A stretch of 64,000 bases of DNA, from positions 128,833 to 192,832 of the forward strand of contig CAZWIT010000002.1 in the NCBI GenBank assembly GCA_964633905.1. Direction: 5' to 3'. Below the pieces are notes generated by a model. That model did not search any database. It saw only the letters and a program-made list of their open reading frames with translations, and was not told the origin of the DNA. Shown piece after piece: positions 38,822-63,103 of the stretch (the first letter of the stretch is position 1; each line of letters opens with the position of its first letter). Origin of the DNA: an uncultured Gammaproteobacteria bacterium. Lineage in GTDB: Bacteria > Patescibacteriota > Patescibacteriia > UBA1558 > GWA2-36-10. The translations under genes and the position numbers were made by a program.

Positions 38822-39238
38822 ATGGCAAGTATTGGTAAAAAATACATTTTAATAAAGATTAACGAAGAGCAATGGGCTTGGCCGCTTGAGTCTAGTAGTC
38901 AATTTTTTAACATCGATTATATCTTACCTTTGCCTAAGACAGATAAATATATAGCTGGCCTTGCTTATCAGCATGGGCGTATTTTGACTGTGCTTAGGGC
39001 TGATAAATTAATTGGTCATGCCAAAAGTAATTTAAATATGAAGCAGGCTTTGTGGTTTGACTATCGACAAGATGCTTATGCAATATTAGTTGATGCTGGT
39101 GGCGAAATCATAACTGTTAAAAATTTTTCTAATGATCCACAAAAGAAAATCTTCAAAAAATATTTTAAACATCAAGCCAGTAGAATATATTGTTTAGAGC
39201 CAGAATTAATCATGTCAATATTAAAGATTTATGATTAG
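38822..39238 (+). CDS. CheW-like coupling protein
   Basis: 138 aa. YILIKINEEQWAWPL...YIAGLAYQHGRILTVL matches the CheW-domain pattern. Confidence 0.7.
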   Translation: MASIGKKYILIKINEEQWAWPLESSSQFFNIDYILPLPKTDKYIAGLAYQHGRILTVLRADKLIGHAKSNLNMKQALWFDYRQDAYAILVDAGGEIITVKNFSNDPQKKIFKKYFKHQASRIYCLEPELIMSILKIYD

Positions 39239-45293: not shown

Positions 45294-48200
45294 TTGATTT
45301 TAGGGTATATGTTTAATAAAAAATCACATTATAAAATTAAAAAAAGAGGCAATGGTTTTTCTTTGGTGGAATTAGTAGTGGCTCTTGGGATTTTTGCTAT
45401 TGTATCTAGTGGTGTGATTTTTGTGGTGATTAATTCTTATCGTACTTATTATGGATCAGGTGACAGGCAGGTAGTAGTCCAATTTGCTCAAGAAGGCTTA
45501 GAAGCTGTCAAAAGTATCCGTGATAATAGTTGGCAGGGTATAGTAGCAGTCGCTGATGATAATGATCATGGAGTAATTAAAGTTAATGGCTTATGGCAGT
45601 TTAGTGGCACTAATAATACTTTAGGTGCTTTAACTAGGACCATTGTGATTAGTAATGTTAGTCGTGATGCTAGTGGTAATATCGATGCTGGTGTTACTTA
45701 TGATCCTAATACTAAAAAAGTAATAGTGACAGTTTCGGGATCTGGTATTTCTAATTATGTTTTAGTTAGCTTTATTACGAATTGGTCTCATCGTTATTGG
45801 GAGCAGACTGATTGGTCAGGAGTTGGTACTAGTGAATTTTGGAACAGTGCACTTAAAGCTTCCTCATCCTATTCTAATATTAGTACTGCTACACCCGGTG
45901 CTTTGACTTTGGCCTTATCGGCTGGTGGTACGCCTGGTAGCTATGGCGATTGGGGCGATGTTTATCCTTTGGCCACTACCACTTATTTTACTAATCAAAT
46001 TCACGGCATGGCTTTATCACCTGATCAAAGAACTTTGTATACCACTGGCAATGATACGGCTCAAAGTTTTAGGGCTTATGATGTTTCTCAAGCAAGAGCT
46101 GGTATTATCAAAGAATTATGGAGTATAAAATATAATACTGACGTGCTTTTGGTTAACGCAGCTACAGTAACAGTGCATCCTAATGGACGCTATGTTTATG
46201 TTGGTTGTTATGCTGCTACCGGTGTTACTGGTAGGTTAATTTTAATTATAGATACAGTGACTAGGCAGTATACGTTTTCTACTGGTGGTACGGCCGGCAG
46301 TTCAACTATGTATATAAATGATATTGTGGTTGATGCGGACTCCAATTATTTATATGCCTTGGGTCGTAATTTTAGAATTTTTCCTTTTCAAATTACTAAT
46401 GATGGAGCTACGCTAACTTTAGTGGGGAATAGTGCTGGCCAAATTATGGCAGGTGGCGCTCTTAATCGAGGTGTGATAGCAAATGGTTGGTTATATATAG
46501 TAACTTCAGATGGTCCTAAATCATTTCAAAAAATAAATATTTCTAATCCAGCTGCTTTGACTACCACAACTGGTGGCGGCTATGTTTTTGCTAACCCCAA
46601 TGGAGCTAGGCCTAGATATAATCTTAAATATATAGAAACAGTGGCTGATCAGCCTCGTTTTCTGGTGACTAATTATTCTGGTTCGTATGAGGTAGAAATT
46701 ATAGAAGATGATGGGACGTCAGCTACTACTATTGGTAATTTAGGTTTAACTAATAGTCTTTATTTTGATATAGCTGATGGTGGTTTAGATGCTAGAACTT
46801 ATTGGCTGTATAATTATTATGGTGATTTACAAGAAATATATATCAATACGAGTGGCGTGCCGACTATTACTGGATCAGTTTGCAATGGCCGAGCTTGTAA
46901 GTATGGAAATTATTATCAGGATGTAGTTAGTAGTAGTAGTTTTTGGGCTGATAATATGGTTTACAGTAGCGTTTTAGGTGGTTTGATATTATTAGAATAT
47001 CAAGGTGCGACACCAGCTACTTATAATATGTACTTTGTTCCTAAAACTGAAACCAGGGCTAACGGCGCTACTTATTCTTATCGGCGGGCAATTACAATTG
47101 ATCATACTAAAGTATCTACTGAAGATCAAAGTTCTTTTCCAGTGCTCATTTCTGGAACCTATAGTTATTTAAAAACAACTGCTAATGGTGGTAATACCCA
47201 GAGTGATTATGGTTATGATATTATTTTTACCTCAGATATTGACGGCAATACGATACTTGATCATGAGATCGAAAGCTATTCTTCTAGTACGGGGGCTTTA
47301 ACTGCTTGGGTCAGAATTCCGACGCTATCATATACTGCGGACACTACTATTTATATGTTTTATGGGAATAACACCATTAGCACTTCACAAGAGAGAGCAA
47401 ATAGTGTTTGGGATGGTAATTTTAAGTTTGTTAGTCACATGGCTGGCAATGGTACGGACTCGGTGCGTAATGATTCTACTTCCGATAATAATTCTTTTTA
47501 TAAGTATTCAGGTGACCCTAGTACTTTTGATGTAGCGGTTTCAGCGAGTTCTGATGATGCCCAAGAGTTAGTTTCTAATGGCACTGTTACTACCAATGCA
47601 GATCCTTTGCATATGTCTTATAACGGTGGCACTTATTATACTGGTTTACGTTTTCAAAATGTGCAAGTGCCACAGGGATCTACAATTATTAATGCTTATT
47701 TAGAATTTCAAGCAGGTACACAATCAGGGGTTAATGGTGATGCTATTAATAATGTTATAGCCGCTGAAGCTACAGATGACGCAGCTACTTTTGCCGCTAC
47801 TAACTATAATATTTCCTCAAGATCAACCACTACTAGTTTTGTGACTTGGAGTTGGGCAGCAGCTTGGACAGCTGGCACTCTTTATCGTACTAATGATATT
47901 AGTCCAGTTATTAGAGAAGTTATTAACCGGCCTGGTTGGGTTAGCGGCAATGACATGGCTTTTAGGATAGCGCCTGATCCAACACAAACTTCTAAAAAGG
48001 TTGCAAAATCATATGACAATGCTACTTGGACCAGTACCACTAGTCCGCGTTTATATATTAATTATGCTTCTAGTACTAGTGGTCAAATAAATAGTGGTGA
48101 TTATTTTGATAACTATGGAGATAAACTATATGCTTTTGCTAATTATAAATCATTATGGCAAAACACTTCTGATTTTACTGCTGAATTTTGGGTTAAATAT

Positions 48201-48992
48201 GCTGGTGGCATGTCAGCATCTAATTACGCTTGCATTTTATATAAAGGCAACGGTGATGCTGGTGTGCAAGAAGGTTGGTATATCCGTTTTTTGGGTAGCA
48301 CCTCTAAATTAACTTTTCATGCTGGTAACAGCGGAAAAAATTTACAAGGCGTAACCATGACCAATGCCTTAAGCGCTGGTACTTGGACTCATATTGCCAT
48401 GGTAGTAGATCGAGATGTTGGTTATCAGTGGTATCGTAATGGTGTTGCAGAAGCAAGCTATGCTACCGACACTAGCGCTTATACGCTGGGAACTTCCACG
48501 TCCTTAGGTATTAGTTGGGATTGGTCGCCTAGTGATCCTAGTATGTCTTTTCTTGGTAATATAGATGAGATTAGAATCTCTCATACCAAGAGATCAACGT
48601 CTTGGTTAGTAACTTCTTATAATTCCCAAAATGATCCTAGTAGTTTTTATAGTATTAGTGATGCAACTACGGTAGCTGGTTATGCGAGTCCGGGTGTTTT
48701 ATATTCTTCTATTATTGATTTGGGAGCAAGCGATCAAACTCTTGCCAGCATTAGTGTTGAACAGGACGTACCAAGTGGTTGTAGTATTGTTGTTACCTTA
48801 GAAGCTTCTGATCTTAGTAGTTTTTCCTCTCTTACTAGCGCTGATTTTAGCGATAGTGCCAATTTTTTTACTAGCAGTACGCCTAGTAGTTTAGATAATA
48901 AGCGCTATTTACGTTATAAAACAACTTTAACTAATTGTAATAGTGGTTCTTCTGCTCCAAGCTTATATTCATTACGTTTAAATTATCGATAA
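45294..48992 (+). CDS. Giant prepilin-type protein (1232 aa) with a C-terminal concanavalin-A-like/LamG lectin domain
   Basis: N-terminus ...KKRGNG|FSLVELVVALGIFAIV. A LamG_3-like domain lies near the C-terminus (FTAEFWVKY...WTHIAMVVDRD...LGNIDEIRISHTKRSTSW). The true start may be the downstream Met (MFNKK...). Confidence 0.7.
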   Translation: MILGYMFNKKSHYKIKKRGNGFSLVELVVALGIFAIVSSGVIFVVINSYRTYYGSGDRQVVVQFAQEGLEAVKSIRDNSWQGIVAVADDNDHGVIKVNGLWQFSGTNNTLGALTRTIVISNVSRDASGNIDAGVTYDPNTKKVIVTVSGSGISNYVLVSFITNWSHRYWEQTDWSGVGTSEFWNSALKASSSYSNISTATPGALTLALSAGGTPGSYGDWGDVYPLATTTYFTNQIHGMALSPDQRTLYTTGNDTAQSFRAYDVSQARAGIIKELWSIKYNTDVLLVNAATVTVHPNGRYVYVGCYAATGVTGRLILIIDTVTRQYTFSTGGTAGSSTMYINDIVVDADSNYLYALGRNFRIFPFQITNDGATLTLVGNSAGQIMAGGALNRGVIANGWLYIVTSDGPKSFQKINISNPAALTTTTGGGYVFANPNGARPRYNLKYIETVADQPRFLVTNYSGSYEVEIIEDDGTSATTIGNLGLTNSLYFDIADGGLDARTYWLYNYYGDLQEIYINTSGVPTITGSVCNGRACKYGNYYQDVVSSSSFWADNMVYSSVLGGLILLEYQGATPATYNMYFVPKTETRANGATYSYRRAITIDHTKVSTEDQSSFPVLISGTYSYLKTTANGGNTQSDYGYDIIFTSDIDGNTILDHEIESYSSSTGALTAWVRIPTLSYTADTTIYMFYGNNTISTSQERANSVWDGNFKFVSHMAGNGTDSVRNDSTSDNNSFYKYSGDPSTFDVAVSASSDDAQELVSNGTVTTNADPLHMSYNGGTYYTGLRFQNVQVPQGSTIINAYLEFQAGTQSGVNGDAINNVIAAEATDDAATFAATNYNISSRSTTTSFVTWSWAAAWTAGTLYRTNDISPVIREVINRPGWVSGNDMAFRIAPDPTQTSKKVAKSYDNATWTSTTSPRLYINYASSTSGQINSGDYFDNYGDKLYAFANYKSLWQNTSDFTAEFWVKYAGGMSASNYACILYKGNGDAGVQEGWYIRFLGSTSKLTFHAGNSGKNLQGVTMTNALSAGTWTHIAMVVDRDVGYQWYRNGVAEASYATDTSAYTLGTSTSLGISWDWSPSDPSMSFLGNIDEIRISHTKRSTSWLVTSYNSQNDPSSFYSISDATTVAGYASPGVLYSSIIDLGASDQTLASISVEQDVPSGCSIVVTLEASDLSSFSSLTSADFSDSANFFTSSTPSSLDNKRYLRYKTTLTNCNSGSSAPSLYSLRLNYR

Positions 48993-50269
48993 TGACAAAA
49001 AAAATAAAACAAAAATCAGGTTTTACCTTACTTGAAACTATTATTTATTTAGCGATTGTTGGCATTTTACTTTCTGCTATTATTGATTTTAGTATTACTT
49101 TGGGAAATTCTTCTAGTAAAATGTCAGCCAACATTGATGCTTCTCGTAATCGCCGAGCGGCTTTAAGTAGTATTAATTATTTAGTGCGCAATGCTGATGG
49201 TCTATGGAAAGATGTTTATAATGATTGTTCAAATTTTAGCTCTAGTCCCCAAATTTTAGCTTTATATTTTAATAATGATGATTATCTGCCTGGTCCTTGC
49301 GTTGAAGATGGTGGGGGAGTAAAAATTAGTATTGATGAAGGTCGCCTAAAAATGACTTGTTACCCTAACGCTGGCTATAATAGTTCTTATAATACTTGTG
49401 CTAGTAGTGCTGGTAATTTTTATTGGTTAAGCGGGCAAGAAGTTTCTATTGCCAATAGTGCTTTAACTTTTTCTACTTCAACCGCTACTTCAACAGCCAA
49501 TGGTTTTACTAGCGTTACTACTTATCTCAATGTTTCTACTATTAGTAATCAGCAAACAAGCCTAAAGGCAAATTCAGCAGCGACCAGTACAGTGGCTATC
49601 CGTAATGAACAGCCGAATGGTTTAATTGCTTTTTATAAATTTGACGATGGTTCTAGCAATGCGGCTGTTGATAGTGTGGATGGCACAAGTTTGAGCTGCG
49701 CTTTAAACCCACCCAGCTCAGTGAGTAATTTAGTAGCAGGTAGTGCTAAGGCTTTTGATTTTAATAGCTCAGAATCAGATTATTGTTCGATCGATAATCC
49801 AGAAAAATTTAATTTAGGGCAGTCTTTTACTATTTCTACTTGGATAAAAATGGATAGCCCAACTGTAGCCGAACATGCTATTATTAATAAGCATGACTGG
49901 TCGGCAAGTCAGGGTTATTATTTGATGGTTTATCAAAATACTGGTCGGGTAATATTTAGAATTTGTGATGGCACAGCTTGTTCTAATATTTTAGATGTTG
50001 ATAGTATTTTAAGTAATGCAACTGTCTATAATATCACGGTGGTATATGATCAACCCAATAGTTTAGGTAAAATGTATATTTATCAGGCTGGGGTTGGCGG
50101 AGTGAGTACTACTACAGCTGCTTCTTGGCCTATTTTAGTTAACTCCAATCAAACTAATTATCCTCGGATCGGTAATAATTTAGATGGTACTTTGGATGAT
50201 TTGCGCATCTATAATAGAGCCTTAACAGAAACAGAAGTTTGGGCTTTGCAAAGTCAGGGTGCTAATTAA
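48992..50269 (+). CDS. Prepilin-type protein with LamG/concanavalin-A-like lectin domain
   Basis: N-terminus MTKKIKQKSG|FTLLETIIYLAIV. LamG_3-like domain (FTISTWIKM...GTLDDLRIYNRALTETEVWAL). Confidence 0.75.
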   Translation: MTKKIKQKSGFTLLETIIYLAIVGILLSAIIDFSITLGNSSSKMSANIDASRNRRAALSSINYLVRNADGLWKDVYNDCSNFSSSPQILALYFNNDDYLPGPCVEDGGGVKISIDEGRLKMTCYPNAGYNSSYNTCASSAGNFYWLSGQEVSIANSALTFSTSTATSTANGFTSVTTYLNVSTISNQQTSLKANSAATSTVAIRNEQPNGLIAFYKFDDGSSNAAVDSVDGTSLSCALNPPSSVSNLVAGSAKAFDFNSSESDYCSIDNPEKFNLGQSFTISTWIKMDSPTVAEHAIINKHDWSASQGYYLMVYQNTGRVIFRICDGTACSNILDVDSILSNATVYNITVVYDQPNSLGKMYIYQAGVGGVSTTTAASWPILVNSNQTNYPRIGNNLDGTLDDLRIYNRALTETEVWALQSQGAN

Positions 50270-51239: not shown

Positions 51240-53006
51240 ATGGCTAAAGACATTATTGGGATTGATATTTCCGATGCCTCAATTGAGGCAATAGTATTAA
51301 ATAAAAAGGGTGGTAATTTTATAGTAGATACTTACTCGCGTTTTCGCTTGTCTCCGGAAATCATAGTAGATGGTAAAATTATTAAACCAGACAAGTTAAA
51401 AGAAGCCTTACAGCTAGTTTTTAAAAGCGCTCAACCGCGCCTTATGGATCCAGGTAGAGTATATTTATCAGTTTCAGAAAGCCGAGCTTTTACTAAAGTT
51501 TTTAATTTTCCTAAAAATTTAAATGATAAGGAATTAAAAGAAGCTGCTATTCATAAGGCAGAGGAGATGATACCAGAGGACATGGCACAATTGTTTAGTG
51601 CTAGTCAGTTACTGCCAAATAAAAATGAACACAAAGAAGTTTTGTATGTAACCGCTGAAAAAGAGGCGGTTTTAGCTTTGACTAAAATATTTCAAGAACA
51701 AAATATAGAAGTTCTCGGTGTTACCACCGAGTCATTTAGTGCTTACTGGGGCTTAAATGAAAAATTTAAAAAAAATCAAACTTTATTATTAGATATTGGT
51801 AGTCATACCACGATTGCAGCTATTTATGATAGTTATAGTGTGCGTGATAGTATTAATATTAATATTGCCGGTTTTAATATTATTGAGGCTATGATCAAAA
51901 GATTTAATATTGACTATTTAAAGGCTGAAGAATTGATTAGGGATGTGGGTTTAACGGCGGAGCCTGGTGATGGTGAAGTAATGCTTTTGATACAGGGACA
52001 ACTACAGCCATTACTTGATGAAGTTAATCGTTTTGTAAATTATTTTCAAGAATCAAATCAGGGACATTTAGAGCAAGTAGTTTTAATTGGTGGCTTGGCG
52101 CAAATGCGCGGTATTGTAAATTATTTTGGCTCTAATCTAAATTTACCTACTTTTATCGGGGAAACTTTTTTATCTAATAGTAATTCAGAGGCAGTTGCTT
52201 TTACTAAATATATTAATGCCCTAGGTCTGGCTAGGCTTTGTTTTGAGAAAAATAATATTAATTTTTTTGATAGTATTGATAAAAAAACTTTAAAACAAGA
52301 ATTAATTAAAGATGAAAAATTAATAGCGCCTAATCCAGATGCAGAAGCAATCGAAACACCGATCGCACCACTTGGTTTAGCAAAATACAAATTATTATTC
52401 AAGAAGATTTTTGGCAGTTTATTTTTTGCATTATTTTTAATGTTGATAGGCTTAGGTGGTTCATTTATTTTTTTGCGAAAACCTTTGCAAAATTTATTTG
52501 TTAGAGAAACTAGCTTTAGTATTAATTCAGAAAAAATTAGTGTTGGTCTAAAATCTCCAGGAGGAGCGAATCAGCGCTTTGTCTATGGTCAAAATGCCTC
52601 TTTTGTTTTAAATCAAGAAAAAGACTATCCGGCCCTTTCCTATGAAGAGGTAAAAGATAAGCTGGTGGCGAATTTATCAGAAGAAGTGATAAATGAATTA
52701 AATAAAAAATATCAACAGAGCGGCTACTACATTATTCCTCAGATTATTGGTAAACAAATTATCGATATTAGTCCTAAGCAAGTAGATTTTAAAATTGGTC
52801 AGCCTGTCAAAGTGCAAGTGAGTTTTTCTTTTATAGCAATCTCCAATAATGATGTTAAACAAGTTTTAGGGCGTATTGCCAAAGCTGAAGAGCAGGCTAA
52901 AATTTTAAGTAGTGAGGTAGAACAGGCAGAATACAAACTTATTTCTTGGGATAGTGCTAATCAATCGTTTGTCTTAGAGGTTAATTTTAAGTTTAAAACT
53001 AAATAA
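51240..53006 (+). CDS. pilM: PilM-like actin-fold ATPase fused to a PilN-like bitopic domain
   Basis: N-terminus IIGIDISDASIEAIVL plus the LLDIGSHTT phosphate-binding motif (FtsA/PilM family). A TM helix (about residues 390-412) is followed by an extracytoplasmic domain. Confidence 0.65.
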   Translation: MAKDIIGIDISDASIEAIVLNKKGGNFIVDTYSRFRLSPEIIVDGKIIKPDKLKEALQLVFKSAQPRLMDPGRVYLSVSESRAFTKVFNFPKNLNDKELKEAAIHKAEEMIPEDMAQLFSASQLLPNKNEHKEVLYVTAEKEAVLALTKIFQEQNIEVLGVTTESFSAYWGLNEKFKKNQTLLLDIGSHTTIAAIYDSYSVRDSININIAGFNIIEAMIKRFNIDYLKAEELIRDVGLTAEPGDGEVMLLIQGQLQPLLDEVNRFVNYFQESNQGHLEQVVLIGGLAQMRGIVNYFGSNLNLPTFIGETFLSNSNSEAVAFTKYINALGLARLCFEKNNINFFDSIDKKTLKQELIKDEKLIAPNPDAEAIETPIAPLGLAKYKLLFKKIFGSLFFALFLMLIGLGGSFIFLRKPLQNLFVRETSFSINSEKISVGLKSPGGANQRFVYGQNASFVLNQEKDYPALSYEEVKDKLVANLSEEVINELNKKYQQSGYYIIPQIIGKQIIDISPKQVDFKIGQPVKVQVSFSFIAISNNDVKQVLGRIAKAEEQAKILSSEVEQAEYKLISWDSANQSFVLEVNFKFKTK

Positions 53007-53121
53007 TTTTTCCCTGTGGATAAGTTTAAAATTATCAATTTGTCCAAAAAATGGTATAATTAGTCTATTAAAATAAAGCAGTATTTAATAAATTTTATTT
53101 GTATAGAATAAAAATAAAAAA

Positions 53122-53625
53122 ATGAATCAAATCTTAAAGAATTCGGGATTTACTTTAATTGAATTGATTATCGTAGTGGCTATTATCGCTCTTCTTGCTT
53201 CAGCTGGTTTTGTGGCTATTAATCCAGGTAAGCGTTCGGGTGATGCTAATAATGCCAAACGTTGGGCAGATGTAACTGCTATTGCTGATGCTTATTCTGC
53301 CTATCTGGTAGATAATGGTGGCACTCATCCAACTACTACACCAACGCCAACGGCAGGTGTTACCTATTCTATTACCACTACCACTGATGCTTCTGGTAAT
53401 CTTACAGTTTGTGAAGGGGGTGCTAACGCTACGACTACTTCTCAGTATATTGATTTGGAAGCCTTAGTAAGTAATGGTTATATTGGTAAAATTCCGCTTG
53501 ATCCAGCTTATGGCGCTGGTGATGCTAGAAATACTGGTTATTATTTTTATCGTGAATCTAGTGGCACCTTGGTTATTGGTTCTTGTGATAGTTATAACAA
53601 TGAAGACATTGAATTAGTTAGATAG
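53122..53625 (+). CDS. Type IV major pilin (paralog 1)
   Basis: MNQILKNSG|FTLIELIIVVAIIALLA, canonical class III signal with Glu+5. 167 aa, Thr-rich central region, two Cys flanking a C-terminal D-region. Confidence 0.85.
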   Translation: MNQILKNSGFTLIELIIVVAIIALLASAGFVAINPGKRSGDANNAKRWADVTAIADAYSAYLVDNGGTHPTTTPTPTAGVTYSITTTTDASGNLTVCEGGANATTTSQYIDLEALVSNGYIGKIPLDPAYGAGDARNTGYYFYRESSGTLVIGSCDSYNNEDIELVR

Positions 53626-53655
53626 TATTTTATTAATAATAATTAAATATAAAAT

Positions 53656-54159
53656 ATGAAAAAAATCTTAAAAAATTCAGGCTTTACTTTAATCGAATTG
53701 ATTATCGTAGTAGCCATCATCGCTTTGCTAGCAGCTGCTAGTTTTGTGGCTATCAATCCTGGCAAACGTGTGGGTGATGCTAATAATGCCAAACGTTGGT
53801 CAGACATTACTGCTATTGCTGATGCTTATTCAGCTTATTTAGTGGATAATGGTGGTACCCATCCAACTACCACGGCTTATACAACTGGTGTTACTTATTC
53901 AATTACTAGTTCAACTCAAGGTCATGCCGAGAGGTGTGCTGCTGATACGACAAATGGTAATGCAACTACTACCTCTGCTAATGTTAACTTAGCAGCCTTG
54001 GTTACATCTGGTTATATTGGTGCCATACCATCTGATCCTGGTTATGTAGTGGCTGATACTTTTAATACTGGTTATTATCTCTATAGAGAGAGTTCTGGTA
54101 AATTAGTAATTGGTTCTTGTGATGCTTACAATTCAGTTAATATAGAAGTAGTTAGGTAG
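53656..54159 (+). CDS. Type IV major pilin (paralog 2)
   Basis: MKKILKNSG|FTLIELIIVVAIIALLA. About 95% identical to paralog 1 over the first ~75 residues. The central region is divergent and the C-terminus conserved. Confidence 0.85.
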   Translation: MKKILKNSGFTLIELIIVVAIIALLAAASFVAINPGKRVGDANNAKRWSDITAIADAYSAYLVDNGGTHPTTTAYTTGVTYSITSSTQGHAERCAADTTNGNATTTSANVNLAALVTSGYIGAIPSDPGYVVADTFNTGYYLYRESSGKLVIGSCDAYNSVNIEVVR

Positions 54160-54189
54160 TTTATCTAGAATATTGTTTAATTTATTTGA

Positions 54190-54218
54190 TTGACAAAAGT
54201 TTATTAGCACTCTATAAT
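54190..54218 (+). promoter_or_regulatory. Consensus sigma-70 promoter (TTGACA-17-TATAAT) of the exporter operon
   Basis: TTGACA at 54190-54195, a 17-nt spacer, TATAAT at 54213-54218. Confidence 0.7.
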
Positions 54219-54230
54219 ATAGAGTGCTAA
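54204..54230. promoter_or_regulatory. Perfect CIRCE operator (TTAGCACTC-N9-GAGTGCTAA) overlapping the -10 box
   Basis: Exact match to the HrcA-binding CIRCE consensus. The spacer tataatata contains the -10 hexamer. Confidence 0.8.
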
Positions 54231-54277
54231 TGTGTTATTTAGCTTATTTTTTTAATGTATTAAATTTAATAATTTTT

Positions 54278-55948
54278 ATGAAGAAAATTTTGAAAAAATG
54301 GTGGTTTTGGTTAATTATTGTGATTGTTTTGGTTGTAATTCTAAATATTTTTTTGTCTAGTAGTAAAGAATCCGTAGTTTATACTACCGAAGCAGCTAAT
54401 ATTCAGGATTTAAAACAAACAGTTGAAGTAACTGGTAAAGTTGAGTCAGCAGATGATATTGATTTAAATTTTTTAGGTAGTGGTACTTTGCGTGATATTA
54501 ATGTTAAAGTTGGCGATCAGGTAAAGACGGGTCAGATTTTAGCTAGCCTTTCGGCTGGCGATGTTGCTGCTCAAGTTAATAATGCTCGGGCCGCTTTAGA
54601 TGTAGCTAAAAGCGATTTAGCTTCTATTTTAGCTGGTGCTTCAGCAGCAGATTTAAATGTTACTGAACAAGAAGTAAATAATGCTTTAACTGCTTACCAA
54701 GCAGCGTTAGATAATTTAGCTAGCTTAGAAAAGACCAGAGACGATGATATGGCAAGTTTGAGGACAGCTGGTTTAAATACTTTAAATGATAAATTATTTG
54801 TTGCTAGGTATTCTTTAGATTTAGTTTATGATGCTATTTTAGATAGCGATGCTGATTATTCTTTATACGTTAATGATACTAATTTATTAACAACGGCCAA
54901 ATATCAATATGAAGCTGCTCAAGCTAAATATACCGAGGTGGCTGTTTTAGTTGCTAAAGCTCAAAGTAGTAATCAGCAGGCTGATATTTTATCAGGCCTA
55001 GATCAATTGCGCCAACTTTTGCAAGCTACTTCCGAGACGCTTAACAATACTTTTAATGTAATGAATACAGTGGTTATAAACTCTGTCTATACACAAACTG
55101 TAGTTGACACCTTTAAGACTTCTTTAAGCAGTAATAATACTAGCGTTAATACAGCGATGAGCGCGGTAGCAAGCTCTGCTTCTAACTTGAGAGCTAAAGA
55201 TTTATATTATCAAAATGCTATATTACAGCAGACTAATGCAGTAAAAGTAGCTCAGGACACCTTGGATTTGGCTAAAGCGAGACTTGATTTAAAAAAAGCA
55301 CCAGCCCGTGATTTTCAAATTGAGGCGGCTAGAGCCCGAGTGCGTCAAGCGGAGGCTAATTTAAGCAGGGCCTTGAGCGATTTATCTGATAAGTCTATCA
55401 AAGCACCAGTTGATGGTTTAATTACTAAAGTTAATTATGCCAAAGGAGAACAAACTTCAGCTGCTAAAGCGGTGATTTCAATGATTGGTTTAAGTACTCT
55501 GCAAATAGAAGTTGATGTGCCGGAATCAGATATTACCAAATTAAAAATCAATGATGAGGTTGATATTGATATTAATGCTTTTACCGATGGTAGTAAGTTT
55601 AAGGGTACGGTTACTTTTATTGATCCAGCCGCTACTGTTATTAATGAAGTTATTTATTATAAAGTTAATATTTCTTTTAAAGAAAAGGATGATAGAATTA
55701 AATCTGGTATGACAGCAGATTTGACAGTGCTTACTGCTAGTAAGCCACAAGTTTTAGTAGTGCCATCAAGAGCAGTTATTAATCGCGATGATCAGCATTA
55801 CGTTCAAGTTTTAGTTGATAAGCAGCCAGTTGATAAAGAAGTAGAAGTTGGTTTAAAAGGCGATAATAGTTTGATAGAAATTGTCAGTGGTTTATCTGCT
55901 GGCGAAGAAGTTATAGTATCTGCTAAAACCAACGGTAAAAAGAAATAA
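54278..55948 (+). CDS. HlyD/MacA-family periplasmic adaptor (membrane fusion protein)
   Basis: Start set at MKKILKKWWFW (54278, in frame with the ORF-track start at 54224). N-terminal TM, long coiled-coil, C-terminal beta-barrel region. Confidence 0.75.
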   Translation: MKKILKKWWFWLIIVIVLVVILNIFLSSSKESVVYTTEAANIQDLKQTVEVTGKVESADDIDLNFLGSGTLRDINVKVGDQVKTGQILASLSAGDVAAQVNNARAALDVAKSDLASILAGASAADLNVTEQEVNNALTAYQAALDNLASLEKTRDDDMASLRTAGLNTLNDKLFVARYSLDLVYDAILDSDADYSLYVNDTNLLTTAKYQYEAAQAKYTEVAVLVAKAQSSNQQADILSGLDQLRQLLQATSETLNNTFNVMNTVVINSVYTQTVVDTFKTSLSSNNTSVNTAMSAVASSASNLRAKDLYYQNAILQQTNAVKVAQDTLDLAKARLDLKKAPARDFQIEAARARVRQAEANLSRALSDLSDKSIKAPVDGLITKVNYAKGEQTSAAKAVISMIGLSTLQIEVDVPESDITKLKINDEVDIDINAFTDGSKFKGTVTFIDPAATVINEVIYYKVNISFKEKDDRIKSGMTADLTVLTASKPQVLVVPSRAVINRDDQHYVQVLVDKQPVDKEVEVGLKGDNSLIEIVSGLSAGEEVIVSAKTNGKKK

Positions 55949-55950
55949 AA

Positions 55951-56658
55951 ATGATTGATATTAAAAATCTTCATAAAGAATATGTTAATGAAGAAGTGGC
56001 TACCAAGATTTTGCATGGTATCAATTTAAGTATTAATAAAGGTGAATTTGTAGCTATTATGGGACCATCTGGTTCTGGTAAATCTACCTTAATGCATATT
56101 TTGGGTTTTTTGGACACTTTGACTACTGGTCAGTATATTTTTCAAGATAAGGATGTTAGTCAATTAGACGATGATACTCTAGCAGAATATCGTAATAAAA
56201 AAGTAGGTTTTGTTTTTCAGAGTTTTAATCTTTTACCCAAAACTAGTGTTTGGGAGAATGTTCGTTTACCTCTCCTGTATACTACTGGTAAGACAGATGA
56301 CTCTTTAGTGGATCAAGCTATCAAAGCTGTTGGTTTAGAGCATCGTCGTGATTTTTTGTCTAATCAGTTATCAGGCGGTGAAAAACAAAGAGTAGCTATT
56401 GCTCGAGCCCTGGTAAACACGCCTGAAATTATTTTTGCTGATGAACCAACTGGTAATTTGGATTCTAAATCTGGCATTCAGATTATGTCGATTTTACAAA
56501 AATTAAATGAAGAAGGCAAAACTATTATTTTAGTTACCCATGAAACTATTACGGCCAAGCATGCTAAAAGAATTATTAGTATTAAAGATGGTATGATTTT
56601 TGATGATACTTCAGATTTTGAAAGGGTGATTGCCAAAGATAGCGAAATACTAAAATAA
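55951..56658 (+). CDS. ABC transporter ATP-binding protein (MacB/LolD-like)
   Basis: Walker [10 protein letters not shown], signature [15 protein letters not shown], Walker [13 protein letters not shown]. Confidence 0.92.
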
Positions 56659-56660
56659 AT

Positions 56661-57905
56661 ATGCATTTTCATATTAAAAATTCGATTGCTATTTTGCAGA
56701 TGTTTAGACGCAATAAGCTGCGTTCTTTTTTGACTTCTTTAGGTATTATTATTGGTATTTCTTCGGTTATTATCATCATGTCAGTTGGCGCTGGAGCACA
56801 GAGCTTGATAGTAAATCAGGTGAGTAGTATTGGCACTGATTTATTAGGTATTTTGCCAGGTGCTAGCGAAGATGATGGTCCGCCAGCTGCAGTTTTTGGT
56901 ATTAATATCACCACTTTAACTTATGAAGATGGTAAAGCAATCGCAAGTAGGGTGCCACAAATTATTGGTGTAGCTTCTTATGCCAGAGGATCAGCTGATA
57001 TTACTTGGCAAAATAAAACAGTGAGTACTAGTTTTTTAGGTGTTACTGGAAATTATTTATCTATTGAAGCTTCAGCGGGGATTGAGTCTGGGCATTTTTT
57101 TTCTGATGATCAAACAGAGCAAGTGGTGAGAGAGGTAGTTTTGGGTAGTCAAACAGCCGAGGATTTATTTGCTGGCATTAATCCCATTGATCAAAAAGTA
57201 AAGATTAATAAAGAGACTTTTAGGGTAATTGGCGTGATGAAAGAGCGGGGTAGTTCTGGTTTTCAAAATCAAGATAGCCAAGTTTTTATTACCCTAGCTA
57301 CTGCTCAAAAATTAATGTTGGGTATAAACCATGTTAGTTTTATGCGGGCTAAAATGTCTCCTGATGTAGTAGATATTGATTATACTATTTCAGAAGTTGA
57401 AAGAGTGTTGCGCGAAAGGCATAATATTCAAGACCCGGCTGATGATGATTTTTCGGTTCGTTCTTCGCAACAAGGTCTTGATACTTTGAAATCTTTGACT
57501 GACGCTTTAAATTATTTTTTGGCTATGGTAGCTGGCATCTCTCTGTTAGTTGGTGGGATTGGTATTATGAACATCATGTTAGTGTCAGTCACAGAAAGTA
57601 CTAGAGAGATTGGCTTGCGTAAAGCAGTCGGTGCTACCAAAAGAGATATTAGCATTCAATATTTAACACAAACAGTATTACTGAGTGCTTTGGGCGGAGT
57701 AATTGGCATTATCTGGGGGGTTATTATTTCTGGCTTAGTTAGCTTGGTAGCTAAAGGTTTAGGTTATCAGTGGGACTTTGTAGTTTCTTTTAGCTCCATT
57801 TTTTTAGCAGTTTCTTTTACAGTTTTAGTTGGTGTCTTTTTTGGTTGGTATCCAGCCCAAAAGGCAGCTAATTTAAGCCCAATTGAAGCTTTGCGTTACG
57901 AATAA
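56661..57905 (+). CDS. ABC transporter permease, FtsX/MacB-type
   Basis: MacB_PCD-like periplasmic domain and a C-terminal FtsX 4-TM domain (GISLLVGGIGIMNIMLVSVTESTREIGLRKAVGA). Confidence 0.85.
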   Translation: MHFHIKNSIAILQMFRRNKLRSFLTSLGIIIGISSVIIIMSVGAGAQSLIVNQVSSIGTDLLGILPGASEDDGPPAAVFGINITTLTYEDGKAIASRVPQIIGVASYARGSADITWQNKTVSTSFLGVTGNYLSIEASAGIESGHFFSDDQTEQVVREVVLGSQTAEDLFAGINPIDQKVKINKETFRVIGVMKERGSSGFQNQDSQVFITLATAQKLMLGINHVSFMRAKMSPDVVDIDYTISEVERVLRERHNIQDPADDDFSVRSSQQGLDTLKSLTDALNYFLAMVAGISLLVGGIGIMNIMLVSVTESTREIGLRKAVGATKRDISIQYLTQTVLLSALGGVIGIIWGVIISGLVSLVAKGLGYQWDFVVSFSSIFLAVSFTVLVGVFFGWYPAQKAANLSPIEALRYE

Positions 57906-57909
57906 TTTT

Positions 57910-59142
57910 ATGAAATACAGTCACAGTTTTGATATTGCTCTTAAGGCTTTGCGGACCAACAAGGTTCGAACAGCTTTAACTGTTTTAGGTATGGTAATTG
58001 GTATTATGTCAGTGTCAGTTATTATTTCCGCTGGCGATAGTATTCAAAAATTAGTTTATAATCAAGTTTCCAGTTTTGGCTCTAATTTTATTCAGATTGA
58101 ATCACGCGCCCCCAAGGCTAGCGGCGGCTCTTTTGCTCAGGTGCAGGGAGTAGTAGTGACTAGCATGAAGCTTTCCGATAAAGAAGCGGTTGATAAAATT
58201 AAAGGTATTAAAACTAGTTATGCTTCTAGTTTTAGTCAAGAAATTATGGCATCAGAAGGCAACATTAAAAAAGTAACTGTTTTTGCAACTGGTCCTGAGT
58301 TTACTGATATTGACGAAGCAGAAATTTCAGCTGGTAGATTTTATACTAAAGAAGAGGACGATAGTTTAGCACGAGTAATAGTATTAGGTGCTAATGTTAA
58401 GGATAAGTTATTTGGTAATAATTCGGCTATCGGCCATAGTGTAAAGATTCGTAACATTAGTTTTAAAGTTATTGGTGAGATGGAGCCTCGCGGTACGGTC
58501 TTTTTCTTTAATTATGATGATATTGCTTATATTCCAATTCAGACCACACAAAAATTATTATTGGGAGTTGATTATATTTCTAGCATTACCGCCCAGATGG
58601 AAGAGGGGGCAGATGATCAAGATTTAGCCGAACAAATAAGAGTTTTATTACGTGATCGGCACGAAATAGATGATCCTGACAAAGATGATTTTGAAGTAAA
58701 TACTTCCGCAGACGCTCAAAATATTTTGGGTACAATTTTAGGTGGCGTGACTTTACTTTTGATCGCTTTAGCGGGTATTTCTTTAGTAGTTGGCGGTGTC
58801 GGTATTATGAATATTATGTATGCTACTGTTTCTGAGCGGACTTTTGAAATTGGTTTACGTAAAAGTATTGGTGCTAGCAAGCATGATATTATGCAGCAAT
58901 TTTTAGCAGAAGCAGTAACAATTACCTTGCTAGGTGGCCTTGGTGGTATTATTTTGGGTGTATTTTTAACTTATATTATTTATATTTTAGCTAACTATTA
59001 TAATTTAGATTGGTCTTTTACAGTATCTCCTTTGGGCGTGGTTTTGTCTTTGGGTTTTTCAATTGCCATTGGTTTAATCTTTGGTCTTTATCCAGCTAAA
59101 AAAGCAGCGGCTCTAAATCCAATTGAAGCTCTAAGGAAATAG
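57910..59142 (+). CDS. ABC transporter permease, FtsX/MacB-type (second copy)
   Basis: Paralog of the previous gene (GISLVVGGVGIMNIMYATVSERTFEIGLRKSIGA). Start set at ATG 57910 (MKYSHSF) to avoid overlapping the upstream gene. Confidence 0.85.
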   Translation: MKYSHSFDIALKALRTNKVRTALTVLGMVIGIMSVSVIISAGDSIQKLVYNQVSSFGSNFIQIESRAPKASGGSFAQVQGVVVTSMKLSDKEAVDKIKGIKTSYASSFSQEIMASEGNIKKVTVFATGPEFTDIDEAEISAGRFYTKEEDDSLARVIVLGANVKDKLFGNNSAIGHSVKIRNISFKVIGEMEPRGTVFFFNYDDIAYIPIQTTQKLLLGVDYISSITAQMEEGADDQDLAEQIRVLLRDRHEIDDPDKDDFEVNTSADAQNILGTILGGVTLLLIALAGISLVVGGVGIMNIMYATVSERTFEIGLRKSIGASKHDIMQQFLAEAVTITLLGGLGGIILGVFLTYIIYILANYYNLDWSFTVSPLGVVLSLGFSIAIGLIFGLYPAKKAAALNPIEALRK

Positions 59143-59184
59143 TCTTGAATATTTTGGCTAATATTAGATAAAATAATTTATTAT

Positions 59185-59211
59185 TTAGCACTCCTTGACG
59201 AAGAGTGCTAA
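59185..59211. promoter_or_regulatory. Perfect CIRCE operator (TTAGCACTC-N9-GAGTGCTAA) overlapping the -35 of the hrcA promoter
   Basis: Exact consensus. The spacer cttgacgaa contains TTGACG (-35). A 17-nt spacer leads to TATAAT at 59218-59223. Confidence 0.85.
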
Positions 59212-59223
59212 TTGCTTTATAAT
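59195..59223 (+). promoter_or_regulatory. Sigma-70 promoter (TTGACG-17-TATAAT) of the hrcA-grpE-dnaK-dnaJ operon
   Basis: Hexamers and spacing read directly. The MEDRNQK start follows at 59230. Confidence 0.7.
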
Positions 59224-59229
59224 ACTTTT

Positions 59230-59886
59230 ATGGAAGATAGAAATCAAAAATTGTTAAAATCAATTATTGAATTACATATTAATACTGCTAAGCCGATTAG
59301 CTCTAAAGTTCTGGCTGAAGACGAAAATTTTGGCTTGTCTTCGGCTACTATTCGCAATGATATGTTGGACTTGGAAAATGCGGGTTATATCTGGCAACCA
59401 CATACTTCAGCTGGTCGTTTGCCTACAGTTTTTGGCTATCGTTATTATTTAGATAATTTATTATCAGTGCCAGTATTATCTGAAGCAGAAGAAAAAGAGT
59501 TAATTAATTTAGCTCAACAAGATATTAGATTGCTAGCCAAATATTTAGTAGAAAAAATTAATTTAGCTGTTATCGTCGGTTTTAGTCCAACAGATTTATA
59601 TTTTACCGGTTTATTTAATTTATTTTCACAGCCTGAATTTGAAGATTATAAAATGGTTTTATCCATGAGCCAAGTGGTTGATTCTTTAGAAAAAGCTACA
59701 GCTCAAATTTTTTATCAAATTGATAAACCACAGGTTTTATTAGGTAAGGATAATCCTTTTAATCCGCATTGTGCTACTGCTATTGCTCCTTTGTCTGAAG
59801 ATCGTATTTTGGCAATTTTAGGGCCGATGCGCATGGATTATAATCGGGTTTTAAGTTTACTTGCTAGTGTAGTAAAAATTGCTTAA
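59230..59886 (+). CDS. hrcA: Heat-inducible transcriptional repressor HrcA (compact form)
   Basis: N-terminal winged helix (LSSATIRNDMLDLENAGYI) and C-terminal GPMRMDYNRVLSL motif. Start placed at 59230 downstream of the promoter. 218 aa against about 340 in typical HrcA. Confidence 0.8.
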   Translation: MEDRNQKLLKSIIELHINTAKPISSKVLAEDENFGLSSATIRNDMLDLENAGYIWQPHTSAGRLPTVFGYRYYLDNLLSVPVLSEAEEKELINLAQQDIRLLAKYLVEKINLAVIVGFSPTDLYFTGLFNLFSQPEFEDYKMVLSMSQVVDSLEKATAQIFYQIDKPQVLLGKDNPFNPHCATAIAPLSEDRILAILGPMRMDYNRVLSLLASVVKIA

Positions 59887-59888
59887 AT

Positions 59889-60413
59889 ATGTTAGATGTA
59901 CAAAAAAATTTAAAGAAAAATAGTAAAATTTCTGATCAAAATAACGACCAAGATTTTCAAGAGCAAATTAGCTCTTTAGAAGAACAAGTAGCTGCCAATC
60001 TGCATGGTTGGAAAAAAGCCTTGGCTGATTATCAAAATTTGCAGAAAGATTCAGATAAAAAACTATCAAATCTTAGTGATTATTTAATCTCAGCTACTAT
60101 TTTGGAGTTATTGCCAATTTTTGATAATTATCGATTAGCCATTGAACATATTCCAGCTGAGCAAAGAAAGGCCGCATGGGCAGTGGGATTGGAACATATC
60201 TTGAAAATGTGGGAACAGTTTTTAGCAGATCATCAAGTTAAAAAAATTGACACTAGTAAAAAAGTTTTTGACCCTTTGTGGCACGAAGCAGTTGATAAAG
60301 TTCATGATAAACAAATACCAGATCAGCAAATAGTCAAAGAATTATTGCCGGGCTACTTGCTCAAAGAATCGTTAATTCGTCCGGCTCAAGTTGTAGTTAA
60401 TAATTTAGAATAA
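59889..60413 (+). CDS. grpE: Nucleotide exchange factor GrpE
   Basis: Coiled-coil N-terminus and the conserved ELLPIFDNYRLAIEH region. Confidence 0.85.
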   Translation: MLDVQKNLKKNSKISDQNNDQDFQEQISSLEEQVAANLHGWKKALADYQNLQKDSDKKLSNLSDYLISATILELLPIFDNYRLAIEHIPAEQRKAAWAVGLEHILKMWEQFLADHQVKKIDTSKKVFDPLWHEAVDKVHDKQIPDQQIVKELLPGYLLKESLIRPAQVVVNNLE

Positions 60414-60464: not shown

Positions 60465-60872
60465 ATGTCAATTATACCTTGGACACCATTTTTAGACACT
60501 TTTGACAGTTTAGAAAAAAGTTTAAGCAATTTCATGCCGGCAGTAGATATTTATGAAGACAAAGATAATGTCTACGTGGAGGCAACTTTAGCTGGTATCA
60601 AGCCAGGCGATGTTAATCTTAATGTTCATGATGATGTATTAACAATCGAAGGTAGTCGTGCTAGTACTAGTGAAATTGATGAAAATAATTATTATCGCAA
60701 AGAAGTTCGTACTGGTTCTTTTCATCGCGCTTTAGTCTTGCCGGTATCAGTGCAATCAGATAAAGCGCAGGCTAGTTTTGAAAACGGATTACTTAAAGTG
60801 ACCTTGCCTAAAGAAGAAAGATCCAAATCTAAAAATATTAAAATTAATATTCAATCAAATAAAAATAATTAA
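60465..60872 (+). CDS. Hsp20/alpha-crystallin family small heat shock protein
   Basis: Alpha-crystallin domain (PAVDIYEDKDNVYVEATLAGIKPGDVNLNV...LTIEG...FHRALVLP...ASFENGLLKVTLPK). Confidence 0.85.
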   Translation: MSIIPWTPFLDTFDSLEKSLSNFMPAVDIYEDKDNVYVEATLAGIKPGDVNLNVHDDVLTIEGSRASTSEIDENNYYRKEVRTGSFHRALVLPVSVQSDKAQASFENGLLKVTLPKEERSKSKNIKINIQSNKNN

Positions 60873-61202
60873 ATGGGAGATAATTTAAATTCACCTCTAA
60901 ATTTACGGTTAATTCGTAATTGTCCAATTTGTCAGCATGAATTCAAATTTAATGCTATTCAGGTTTTAAATGAAAATGATTTTGGCGTTTTGACTTATAT
61001 GATTTGTTCTTTTTGTGGCGCGCGTTTATTAACAAAATTAGCTACCATGCCTCAGGGTGTGGTTGGTAATGCGATTTTGACAGACTTGAAGGCAGAAGAA
61101 GTAATGGATTTTGCTGGTGGAGTAGATAGCATCCAAGCGGACGATGTTTTAGCAGTTCATAAACTTATTAATAATCAAGAATTTTTTAAAGCAATTAAAT
61201 AA
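60873..61202 (+). CDS. Small hypothetical zinc-ribbon protein embedded in the heat-shock operon
   Basis: CPICQHEF...CSFCG pair of CxxC motifs. 109 aa, no recognised family. Confidence 0.4.
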
Positions 61203-61210
61203 TAAATAAT

Positions 61211-63103
61211 ATGGGAAAAATTATCGGTATTGATTTAGGTACTACCAACTCGGCGGTAGCAGTAATGGAAGGTGGTCAACCTAAAATTTTAGAAAACAAA
61301 GAAGGTAATCGTACCACTCCATCAATTGTGGCGATTTCTAAAAATAACGAACGCTTAGTTGGTATTACTGCCAAACGTCAAGCAGTTACTAATGCTGCTA
61401 GTACTGTCTTTTCGGTTAAGCGTTTGATTGGTCGAAGATTTTCTGACTCGGAAGTACAACGTGATCTAAAAATCATGCCTTATCAGATTAAGCAAGCAGG
61501 CGAAGGTGTTAAAGTTACTTTAGGAGATAAAGAATATTCGCCACAGGAAGTTTCAGCTATGATTTTACAAAAATTAAAAGCTGACGCCGAAGAACGTTTA
61601 GGTGGTCCAGTAACTGAAGCAGTAATTACCGTGCCAGCTTATTTTGATGATGCTCAACGTCAAGCTACCAAAGACGCTGGCAAGATCGCTGGTCTTGAGG
61701 TAAAGCGTATTATTAATGAACCAACAGCTGCAGCGCTGGCTTATGGTTTTGATAAAAAGAAAGATCAAAAAATTGCTGTCTATGATTTGGGTGGTGGTAC
61801 TTTTGATATTTCTATTTTAGAAGTTTCACAAGATACAGTAGAAGTAAAGTCTACTAATGGTGACACTCATTTAGGCGGTGATGATTTTGATCAAAAAATT
61901 ATTAATTGGATTATTACTGAATTCAAAAAACAAGAAGGCATTGATTTAAGTAATGATAAATTAGCTTTACAGCGCTTAAAAGAAGCTGCTGAAAAAGCCA
62001 AAATTGAGCTTTCTTCTTCTTTGGAAACTGAAATTAATCAACCATTTATTACCACTGATGCTTCTGGTCCTAAACATTTGGTAATGAAATTTTCTCGAGC
62101 CCAACTCGAAAGTTTAGTGGGCGATTTAGTCAAAGCTACTTTAGAGCCAGTTAAAAAAGCTTTAGCTGATTCTGGTATTGATGTTAAAAATATTGAAGAA
62201 GTTGTCATGGTTGGTGGTATGACTCGTATGCCATTAGTTTTAAAAACAGTTGAAGAATTTTTCGGCAAGAAACCAAATATTTCTGTAAACCCAGATGAAG
62301 TTGTTGCTTTGGGCGCAGCTGTGCAAGCAGGCGTTTTGCAAGGTGACGTCAAAGATGTGTTGCTTTTAGATGTGACGCCTTTAACTCTAGGTTTAGAAAC
62401 TTTAGGTGGCATTCGTACACCTTTGATAAATCGTAATACTACTATTCCTACTTCTAAGACGCAGATATTTTCAACAGCTGCTGATAGTCAAGACAGTGTA
62501 GAAATAAATATTTTACAAGGCGAGCGTGAGATGGCTGCTGATAATAAAACCTTAGGTCGTTTTACCTTATCTGGTATTCCACCAGCACCAAGAGGCGTGC
62601 CTCAAATTGAAGTTACTTTTGATATTGATGCTAATGGTATTTTAAATGTTAAGGCAGTTGATAAAGCAACTGGCAAACAACAAGCTATTACCATTAAATC
62701 ATCCTCTGGTTTATCTGAAGCGGAAATTCAAAAGATGACTAAAGAGGCTGAAGTTCACGCGGCTGAAGATAAACAAAAAAAAGAAGCTGTAGAGTTAGCT
62801 AATAATGCTGATCATATGGTTTTCCAAACAGAAAAGTTTATTAAAGAGAATCAAGATAAAATTAAGGAAGAAGATAAGAAGCAATTAGAATCTAAATTAG
62901 AAACTCTAAAGAAAGCAAAAGATAGCAAAGATGTCGAGGCTATCAAAGGCGCAGTTAGTGATTTAGAGACTACTGTACAAAATGTTGGCGCTAGTCTTTA
63001 TCAAGCCCAGGCCGCTCAGTCAGAGACTAAAACAGCAGAGGCCACTAAAGATCAGCCTGTAGAAGCAGAATATAGTGAAGTAAAATCAGACAAAACTAAC
63101 TAA
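61211..63103 (+). CDS. dnaK: Molecular chaperone DnaK (Hsp70)
   Basis: [26 protein letters not shown], and the C-terminal substrate-binding and lid domains. Confidence 0.98.

Follow-up and report, generated by a model that had tools for sequence, protein, structure and literature searches.

Why should a perfect operator for the heat-shock repressor HrcA lie on the promoter of a membrane exporter? The question is raised by a 64-kb stretch of DNA (the window) from an uncultivated bacterium in the Patescibacteria (also called CPR, for candidate phyla radiation), whose protein homologues point to kinship with Komeilibacteria. Patescibacteria are ultra-small, wall-bounded, pilus-dependent episymbionts that live attached to host cells, and to our knowledge almost nothing is known about their transcriptional regulation. 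HrcA and its operator, CIRCE (an inverted repeat that controls the expression of chaperones), constitute the class I heat-shock regulation that governs groESL and hrcA-grpE-dnaK-dnaJ in Bacillus subtilis and is also present in Chlamydia, Helicobacter and Geobacter. In the window, one such element (CIRCE1) precedes the genes of a MacAB-like exporter, followed by hrcA and the dnaK chaperone genes, the order on the + strand being pilM, pilins, adaptor, ATPase, permease, permease, hrcA, grpE, hsp20, orf109, dnaK and dnaJ. Our comparison of sequences leads us to propose, with a probability that we put at about 0.8, that CIRCE1 is a functional HrcA operator covering the -10 element of the exporter promoter (P1), and that the resulting doubly gated exporter/hrcA-dnaK arrangement was gained once, in a subclade of this lineage.

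The whole window was searched with the CIRCE consensus, TTAGCACTC-N9-GAGTGCTAA, allowing up to 3 mismatches, and the chance level was taken from 100 dinucleotide shuffles. Exactly two sites were found, at 54204-54230 (CIRCE1, TTAGCACTC-TATAATATA-GAGTGCTAA) and at 59185-59211 (CIRCE2), both without mismatch; the chance expectation was 0.06 sites per window and none of the 100 shuffles gave two. As inverted repeats, neither site is assigned to a strand. All 18 arm positions of CIRCE1 match the consensus and its spacer measures exactly 9 nt, as it does in all the orthologous sites. A promoter scan of the window returned 52 candidates, of which the one at 54190-54218 ranks first (TTGACA-17-TATAAT, 12/12). 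This is P1, on the + strand, with its -35 hexamer TTGACA at 54190..54195, which was also recognised by reading the sequence and is supported by the invariance of TTGACAAAA across 8 aligned orthologous loci, and its -10 hexamer TATAAT at 54213..54218, after a 17-nt spacer. Eight nucleotides separate TTGACA from CIRCE1, and TATAAT fills the first six positions of the CIRCE1 spacer. The initial annotation had claimed both the perfect operator and the -10 element within it, and both claims were borne out. Judging from the spacing, transcription from P1 would start at about 54224-54226, within the right arm of CIRCE1. The operator ends 47 nt before the ATG of the adaptor gene, and both flanking genes lie on the + strand. 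This ATG, at 54278, is conserved in the orthologues and was taken as the start; a GTG at 54224 was rejected as the adaptor start.

The same genome encodes the cognate regulator, and CIRCE2 lies ahead of its gene, hrcA, about 5 kb downstream; the arms of CIRCE2 are identical to those of CIRCE1, as had been noted initially. Here it is the -35 element of the hrcA promoter (P2) that falls within the operator: the spacer (CTTGACGAA) holds it at 59195-59200 and the -10 hexamer TATAAT follows the operator at 59218..59223 (+ strand), whereas in P1 the -10 occupies the spacer. P2 was the second-ranked candidate of the promoter scan (59195-59223, TTGACG-17-TATAAT, 11/12), and CIRCE2 with C-TTGAC in its spacer is kept in 23 syntenic loci. 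Because the hrcA ATG at 59230 stands only 6 nt past the P2 -10 hexamer, the hrcA mRNA would probably be leaderless. In most of the 23 syntenic genomes the hrcA -10 is likewise followed by the ATG after only 5-8 nt, with a longer leader in L015, L018, L024 and L031 (L-numbers denote the related or metagenomic loci that were compared with the window). A tblastn search found neither groES nor groEL within the window, as the initial annotation had stated, so no misannotated groE gene is present there.

The conservation of CIRCE1 is the standard comparative test of our proposal. An alignment of 27 adaptor homologues was used to fetch 80 loci from GTDB species genomes, to which L203 (the same organism as L005), L204, L205 and L206 were added later through protein look-ups. 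The full block pilM-pilin(s)-adaptor-ATPase-permease-permease-hrcA-grpE-hsp20-orf109-dnaK is syntenic in about 28 loci. One of them, L001, is an independent metagenome-assembled genome (MAG), 95% identical to the window, and since its arrangement is identical, that of the window is not an assembly artefact. The hrcA operator with its C-TTGAC spacer was found in essentially all the syntenic loci; the exporter operator was found only in the window, L001, L002, L005/L203, L006, L007, L011, L012, L205 and L206 (11 loci, about 7 lineages), which form one clade. Both CIRCE1 arms are unchanged in the 11 loci and the -10 hexamer reads TATAAT or TAAAAT in all of them; in the alignment of 8 of the 11 upstream regions, the two arms and TA.AAT are invariant together with the -35 sequence given above. 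Mean pairwise identity reaches 0.93 for the block from the -35 to CIRCE and 0.97 for CIRCE alone (0.91-0.97 for the core overall) but drops to 0.50 and 0.45 for the flanking DNA; when the two deep subclades are compared with each other, the flanks reach 0.43-0.47. The adaptor proteins of the clade are 55-63% identical. A core retained amid diverged flanks in every sampled member is what one classically expects of a working operator, and it is as such that we interpret CIRCE1.

The four exporter proteins were concatenated (1664 columns) and a neighbour-joining tree was built with 200 bootstraps; the loci with CIRCE1 were monophyletic in 194 of the 200 replicates, with L204, which has no CIRCE1, as their sister. 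In the relatives devoid of CIRCE1, the same intergenic region contains a GC-rich hairpin and a T-run behind the pilin gene and then an ordinary promoter (typically GGTATAAT), whose -10 lies about 30-45 nt ahead of the adaptor ATG, compared with 59 nt for P1. Because the promoter of these relatives occupies the same intergenic region, we take the P1 region to be the promoter region of the exporter operon. Since the loci with CIRCE1 are monophyletic and every sampled descendant has the site, the data point to a single gain in the subclade ancestor, after which the site would have been kept by selection. The simplest history would be that a terminator followed by a constitutive promoter was replaced, once, by a consensus promoter embedded in CIRCE.

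How such an arrangement would work can be proposed from better known systems. In Bacillus, Chlamydia and Helicobacter, HrcA is kept active by GroEL. Both this GroE titration model and operators that overlap core promoters have been reviewed (PMC6032397). As long as folding capacity is sufficient, an HrcA dimer kept active by GroEL would occupy both arms of CIRCE1 and RNA polymerase would be barred from the -10 element; once unfolded proteins titrate GroEL, HrcA would be released and the very strong P1 would fire. Because the activity of HrcA is presumed to depend on GroEL, a load of unfolded proteins would derepress P1 and P2 alike, and the exporter would be made alongside the chaperones. With HrcA off, transcripts from P1 would probably also run on into hrcA-grpE-hsp20-orf109-dnaK-dnaJ, creating a two-promoter, doubly HrcA-gated super-operon. 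No intrinsic terminator was found in the 42 nt that separate the last permease stop from CIRCE2 (59143-59184), and it is this lack that makes read-through from P1 into hrcA-dnaK probable; a similarly tight junction (30-45 nt, without a terminator) is present in most members of the clade. Induction of the exporter in step with the chaperones is thus very probable, and the locus is best read as making the exporter a true accessory member of the HrcA regulon, one that is specific to this clade. The initial annotation had suggested such a noncanonical membership, which now finds support in the clade-wide conservation of the site amid diverged flanks, in the cognate HrcA and in the shared geometry.

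Several observations weigh against this interpretation, and some of them concern the repressor. The HrcA of the window (59230..59886, + strand; Pfam HrcA) is truncated, with 218 aa, and lacks about 125 central residues of the canonical protein; being a short form, it scores 158.7 bits with the NCBIfam equivalog model TIGR00331, below the cut-off of 197.2. Its dimerisation and its dependence on GroEL have to be regarded as putative. Regarding the operator, about 20 syntenic sister genomes have no CIRCE1, and no CIRCE (up to 3 mismatches) was found at any of 49 more distant exporter loci of Patescibacteria, and therefore HrcA control is not intrinsic to this exporter family. Finally, the 14-bp hairpin that CIRCE1 can form in RNA could serve to end pilin transcripts. 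As to what the short HrcA retains, both the N-terminal winged helix and the C-terminal part are intact: in an alignment with a 360-aa HrcA, residues 1-98 fall on 23-119 of the longer protein and residues 122-214 on 248-350. The winged-helix domain is 46-50% identical to that of long HrcAs across about 90 residues and is close to that of Thermotoga maritima HrcA, aligning to residues 16-100 of 1STZ with an E value of 4e-19. The missing region may be the equivalent of the dimerising domain that is inserted in the T. maritima structure. L087, L099, L133 and other loci also encode short forms of HrcA.

The tight junction between the exporter genes and hrcA raises the question of which genes the upstream operator was selected for. 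P1 and CIRCE1 could serve mainly as a second, upstream HrcA-gated promoter of hrcA-grpE-hsp20-dnaK-dnaJ, with the exporter genes as passengers; CIRCE on P1 would then keep constitutive read-through from bypassing HrcA autoregulation, and no stress function of the exporter would be implied. The adjacency of exporter and hrcA in about 28 genomes and the terminator-free junction of the window and most clade members agree with this explanation, as does the hairpin with a T-run that some relatives without CIRCE1 (L017, L031) bear before hrcA. However, many other relatives (e.g. L004, L008, L013, L015) likewise have no terminator at this position and yet no CIRCE1, and L012 retains CIRCE1 despite about 400 nt inserted between the exporter and hrcA. 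We consider this explanation unlikely, with a chance that deserves to be kept in mind; the exporter would be controlled by HrcA either way, the two accounts differing in the genes that were selected for and not in the mechanism.

That the repeat chiefly acts as an RNA hairpin, terminating or insulating pilin transcription, with its match to CIRCE incidental to HrcA regulation, seems to us very improbable. It is true that a terminator scan flags 54202-54232 (14 pairs, a 3-nt loop and a T-rich tail), that this hairpin dominates the predicted fold of the read-through RNA, and that the window offers no further terminator behind the pilin genes, where the relatives without CIRCE1 have a classic one. 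For a terminator, however, pairing alone would suffice, whereas throughout the clade the 18 arm positions equal the consensus and the hrcA operator, without compensatory variation; moreover, the -35 and -10 hexamers are conserved with the site at exact spacing, the self-complementarity of the spacer varies (TATAATATG in L005 and L007) and the T-tail is poor in several members. A dual role of CIRCE1, as operator and terminator, is possible. The idea that CIRCE1 is a chance occurrence or a functionless, decaying relic has next to nothing in its favour, given that only 0.06 sites are expected per window even when 3 mismatches are allowed and that the site is perfect across lineages whose flanks are 43-50% identical; shuffle expectation and conservation together exclude chance.

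The same promoter design was sought in metagenome contigs, which were scanned for TTAGCACTC-TAWAAT-NNN-GAGTGCTAA; at least 120 loci were obtained, and the counts that follow are among the 120 matches listed. The first downstream open reading frame (ORF) was dnaK in at least 27, hrcA in at least 17 (one BLAST cluster; at least 11 of them short forms of 227-239 aa), clpB in at least 15 (a cluster of 14 plus L110), groES in at least 12 and hsp20 in at least 4. Single cases included FtsH, a ClpP-like protein, a sigma-70-family protein, an Rce1-like protease, a pyrophosphatase and others, and at least 27 had no ORF or a contig end downstream. Many of these sites bear TTGAC(A) at the -35 position. 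A -10 element inside the CIRCE spacer is thus a common architecture of HrcA-type promoters in uncultivated bacteria, whose predicted HrcA regulons would reach beyond groE and dnaK to clpB, hsp20, ftsH and others; the wider design, with either the -10 or the -35 housed in the spacer, is likewise common. Three of the matches listed seemed to precede a membrane fusion protein (MFP), but none of them proved to be an independent acquisition. Two of them, L160 (= L005) and L196 (= L002), are organisms of the present clade and represent the only exporters among the 120. The third, L110, encodes ClpB, as its N-terminus (MNLNKFTIKSTEAL) reveals, the weak MFP match being due to coiled-coil similarity. 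In L110, about six tandem copies of a 21-22-nt unit (GGGAATGACAAAAAGAGGGAC) occupy positions 1095-1245, between the CIRCE-embedded promoter and clpB. Nor did we find support for P1 as a copy of the groES promoter of the lineage: the groES promoters among these matches have the TTGACA-N8-CIRCE geometry of P1 but other flanks (TTTA... vs TrTGTTAT), and the resemblance stems from the common geometry alone. HrcA control of this pump would thus be a rare, clade-specific addition.

The initial annotation had described CIRCE/HrcA control as restricted to groESL and dnaK operons. This corresponds to the classical view, but accessory targets have been documented: rpoH in Geobacter sulfurreducens (PMC545781), hsp1 in Lactobacillus plantarum (PMC3842655) and, in Waddlia chondrophila, 12 accessory genes, including phoH and one for a vWA protein, identified by chromatin immunoprecipitation with sequencing (ChIP-seq) and electrophoretic mobility shift assays (EMSA) (PMC4989314); to these can be added the clpB, hsp20 and ftsH matches from metagenomes described above. 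As in those bacteria, the window would combine a small core (groE, dnaK, hrcA) with a few taxon-restricted CIRCE promoters. In contrast, none of the reported extra targets is a MacB-type exporter with its adaptor, and the case for the window rests on comparison. With the class I system at large, the window shares the identical operator, a presumed GroEL titration, and an autoregulated hrcA that heads the dnaK operon, and its operators overlap core promoter elements as they do in Helicobacter pylori (PMC6032397). It differs in its predicted target, an envelope exporter that is neither a chaperone nor a protease, in the position of the -10 (P1) or -35 (P2) element within the 9-nt spacer, in the 218-aa HrcA and in the probably leaderless hrcA mRNA.

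A link between a heat-shock regulator and a MacB pump has been described in another setting, although its relevance here is uncertain. macB was reportedly listed in the sigma-32 regulon of Escherichia coli by Nonaka and co-workers in 2006. For E. coli, an intragenic ChIP site of sigma-32 association within macB is mentioned (PMC3738151). There, an alternative sigma factor would exert positive control from an intragenic site, whereas in the window repression would take place at the operon promoter. We found no report in the literature of a CIRCE upstream of a MacB-type pump, and no study that combined HrcA with Patescibacteria.

The exporter consists of a HlyD adaptor, an ABC ATPase and two FtsX permeases, as had been recognised initially and as Pfam agrees, all on the + strand. 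The adaptor (54278..55948, 556 aa) is a MacA/HlyD-like membrane-fusion protein (Pfam HlyD_D23/HlyD_3; NCBIfam RND_mfp above its cut-off). Its best match among PDB sequences is MacA (E 6.5e-24), but with the MacA equivalog model it scores 120.8 against a cut-off of 342, and so we regard it as MacA-like and not as a MacA orthologue. Its AlphaFold model (pLDDT 87) has an N-terminal transmembrane (TM) helix and an unusually long helical region spanning residues 96-371, in which two of the helices run for 66-68 residues (roughly 100 A each) and are joined by an additional helical hairpin; the best fold match of the model is MacA in MacAB-TolC. The protein is about 200 residues longer than MacA, and Patescibacteria very commonly have homologues of about 550 aa (more than 1000 matches); the extra length may span the wall or S-layer. 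The ATPase (55951..56658) is of the MacB/LolD/FtsE type (Pfam ABC_tran, PF00005, 4.5e-34), and its nearest NCBIfam models, DarD, the MacB nucleotide-binding domain (NBD) and LolD, each score below their own cut-off. Both permeases, permease 1 (56661..57905) and permease 2 (57910..59142, with its start ATG 57910 conserved in the orthologues), have MacB_PCD and FtsX domains (PF12704, PF02687). A permease search of the PDB matched MacB (E 7.5e-54) and 5xu1, the MacAB-like pump of Streptococcus pneumoniae (E 8e-38). Because the two are paralogues, 39% identical (BLASTP), they probably form a heterodimer.

The locus has the attributes of a MacB-type (type VII) exporter, with a four-TM FtsX permease that carries MacB_PCD between TM1 and TM2, a cognate ATPase and a MacA-type adaptor; none of the exporter proteins attained the equivalog cut-off of MacA, LolCDE or FtsEX in NCBIfam. 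A LolCDE lipoprotein-release system was rejected on account of the scores (39.8 bits against a cut-off of 362 for lolCE, 225.6 against 307.75 for LolD) and the presence of an adaptor gene. By homology, the exporter would be a mechanotransmission pump with a hexameric adaptor tube, as described for MacB-type systems (PMC5985334, PMC5768738). No TolC-type outer-membrane exit duct is encoded in the exporter locus. The MacAB-like pumps of monoderms, Spr0693-0694-0695 of S. pneumoniae (PMC5768738) and YknWXYZ of Bacillus (PMC4887032), protect against peptides and antibiotics; these homologues, Spr0693-0695 and YknXYZ, operate without an outer-membrane duct, and the exporter of the window, having no TolC partner in its locus, would act like them. 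It shares with MacAB-TolC and the monoderm pumps the adaptor, the ATPase (separate or fused) and the four-TM FtsX-type permease with the MacB periplasmic core domain. It departs from MacAB-TolC in lacking a gene for an outer-membrane factor, in its predicted regulation by HrcA, in having two paralogous permeases (a LolC/LolE-like heterodimer) instead of a homodimer, and in its 556-aa adaptor, whose helical region is about twice that of MacA. The initial annotation had raised the export of misfolded or lipidated substrates as a possible role. One could speculate, at rather long odds, that this heterodimeric pump with its extra-long adaptor, encoded between the type IV pilus genes and hrcA-dnaK, is an extractor in proteostasis, which clears the envelope of membrane-anchored or secreted proteins that have misfolded (pilins, lipoproteins) or of peptides released under stress. 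If so, a CIRCE regulon would for the first time include an arm for envelope quality control, within a doubly HrcA-gated super-operon with DnaK, DnaJ, GrpE and Hsp20.

The leader between CIRCE1 and the adaptor ATG showed an additional feature in the long-leader members of the subclade. A short upstream ORF (uORF; MNPVRNSTYNV-stop or MNLVRNSRD...-stop) is present in the leaders of L205 (leader at 5856-6024), L005/L203, L206 and L012, and includes 15 nt that are reverse-complementary to the region where translation of the adaptor gene is initiated. The two segments differ between genomes in a compensatory manner (ATCCGG/CCGGAT vs ATCTCG/CGAGAT); the predicted fold of L205 pairs the uORF with the initiation region and that of L206 favours a local alternative hairpin (z -3.7). 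Such pairing may represent a translational attenuator or an RNA-thermometer-like switch. The complementarity is absent from the leader of the window, whose predicted structure is not significant (z -0.4), and an Rfam search of 53000-60000 gave zero matches at E values up to 1.

Upstream of hrcA, a 12-bp palindrome, GCTAATATTAGC, lies at 59157-59168, exactly 16 nt before CIRCE2, and is composed of the outer 5 nt of both CIRCE arms in swapped order. It also occurs in lineages from more than one subclade: L001, L004, L021, L028 and L031 and, with 2-3 mismatches, L008, L009 and L019. This element may serve as an additional HrcA site, as the operator of some other factor or as an UP-like element. 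The near matches GCTAAAATTAGC lie at 24476, inside, and at 25627, just upstream of, a glycosyltransferase gene. Downstream of hrcA follow, on the + strand, grpE (59889-60413), hsp20 (60465-60872) and dnaK (61211-63103), all identified with Pfam, and, between hsp20 and dnaK, a conserved 109-aa zinc-ribbon-like ORF with two CxxC pairs (orf109, 60873-61202). The orf109 product has no Pfam or NCBIfam match and is found at the same position, with 50-60% identity, in all the syntenic genomes; it may act as a co-chaperone or regulator that has so far gone unrecognised. dnaJ runs off the window after dnaK and was found on an overlapping Logan contig. The two Logan contigs reached through DnaK and L23 (5.8 and 14 kb) contained dnaJ and a hemerythrin gene and no additional CIRCE.

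On the other side of the exporter, two tandem type IV pilin genes (53122..54159, + strand; Pfam N_methyl) lie directly upstream of P1, with no separate terminator between the pilin stop at 54159 and the promoter. Further upstream, Pfam identified a CheA-like kinase, PilB, PilC, large pilin-like adhesins and PilM. PilB, PilC and a Fib_succ_major-domain protein are followed by two pilin-like proteins of very large size (1232 and 425 aa; 45294-50269) with N-terminal methylation motifs and Laminin_G_3 lectin-like domains; the CheA-like kinase gene (39231-40790) lies further upstream. These genes probably make up an adhesive type IV pilus locus with which the cell attaches to its host. A coupling of the exporter to pili or to hrcA beyond this lineage was rejected, since adjacency to pilM or pilin genes was seen at 1 of the 49 distant loci and an adjacent hrcA at none, so that the synteny is lineage-specific.

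In summary, we regard the exporter operator as a lineage-specific, incremental extension of the textbook HrcA system and not as a new kind of system. A conserved exporter operon would here have acquired a repressor site in a single event that can be dated; this constitutes a clean, testable regulatory prediction, for which the sister lineages, with the same genes behind an ordinary promoter, represent natural controls. If the exporter does answer to proteotoxic stress, envelope export would be tied to cytoplasmic chaperone control in these host-attached organisms.

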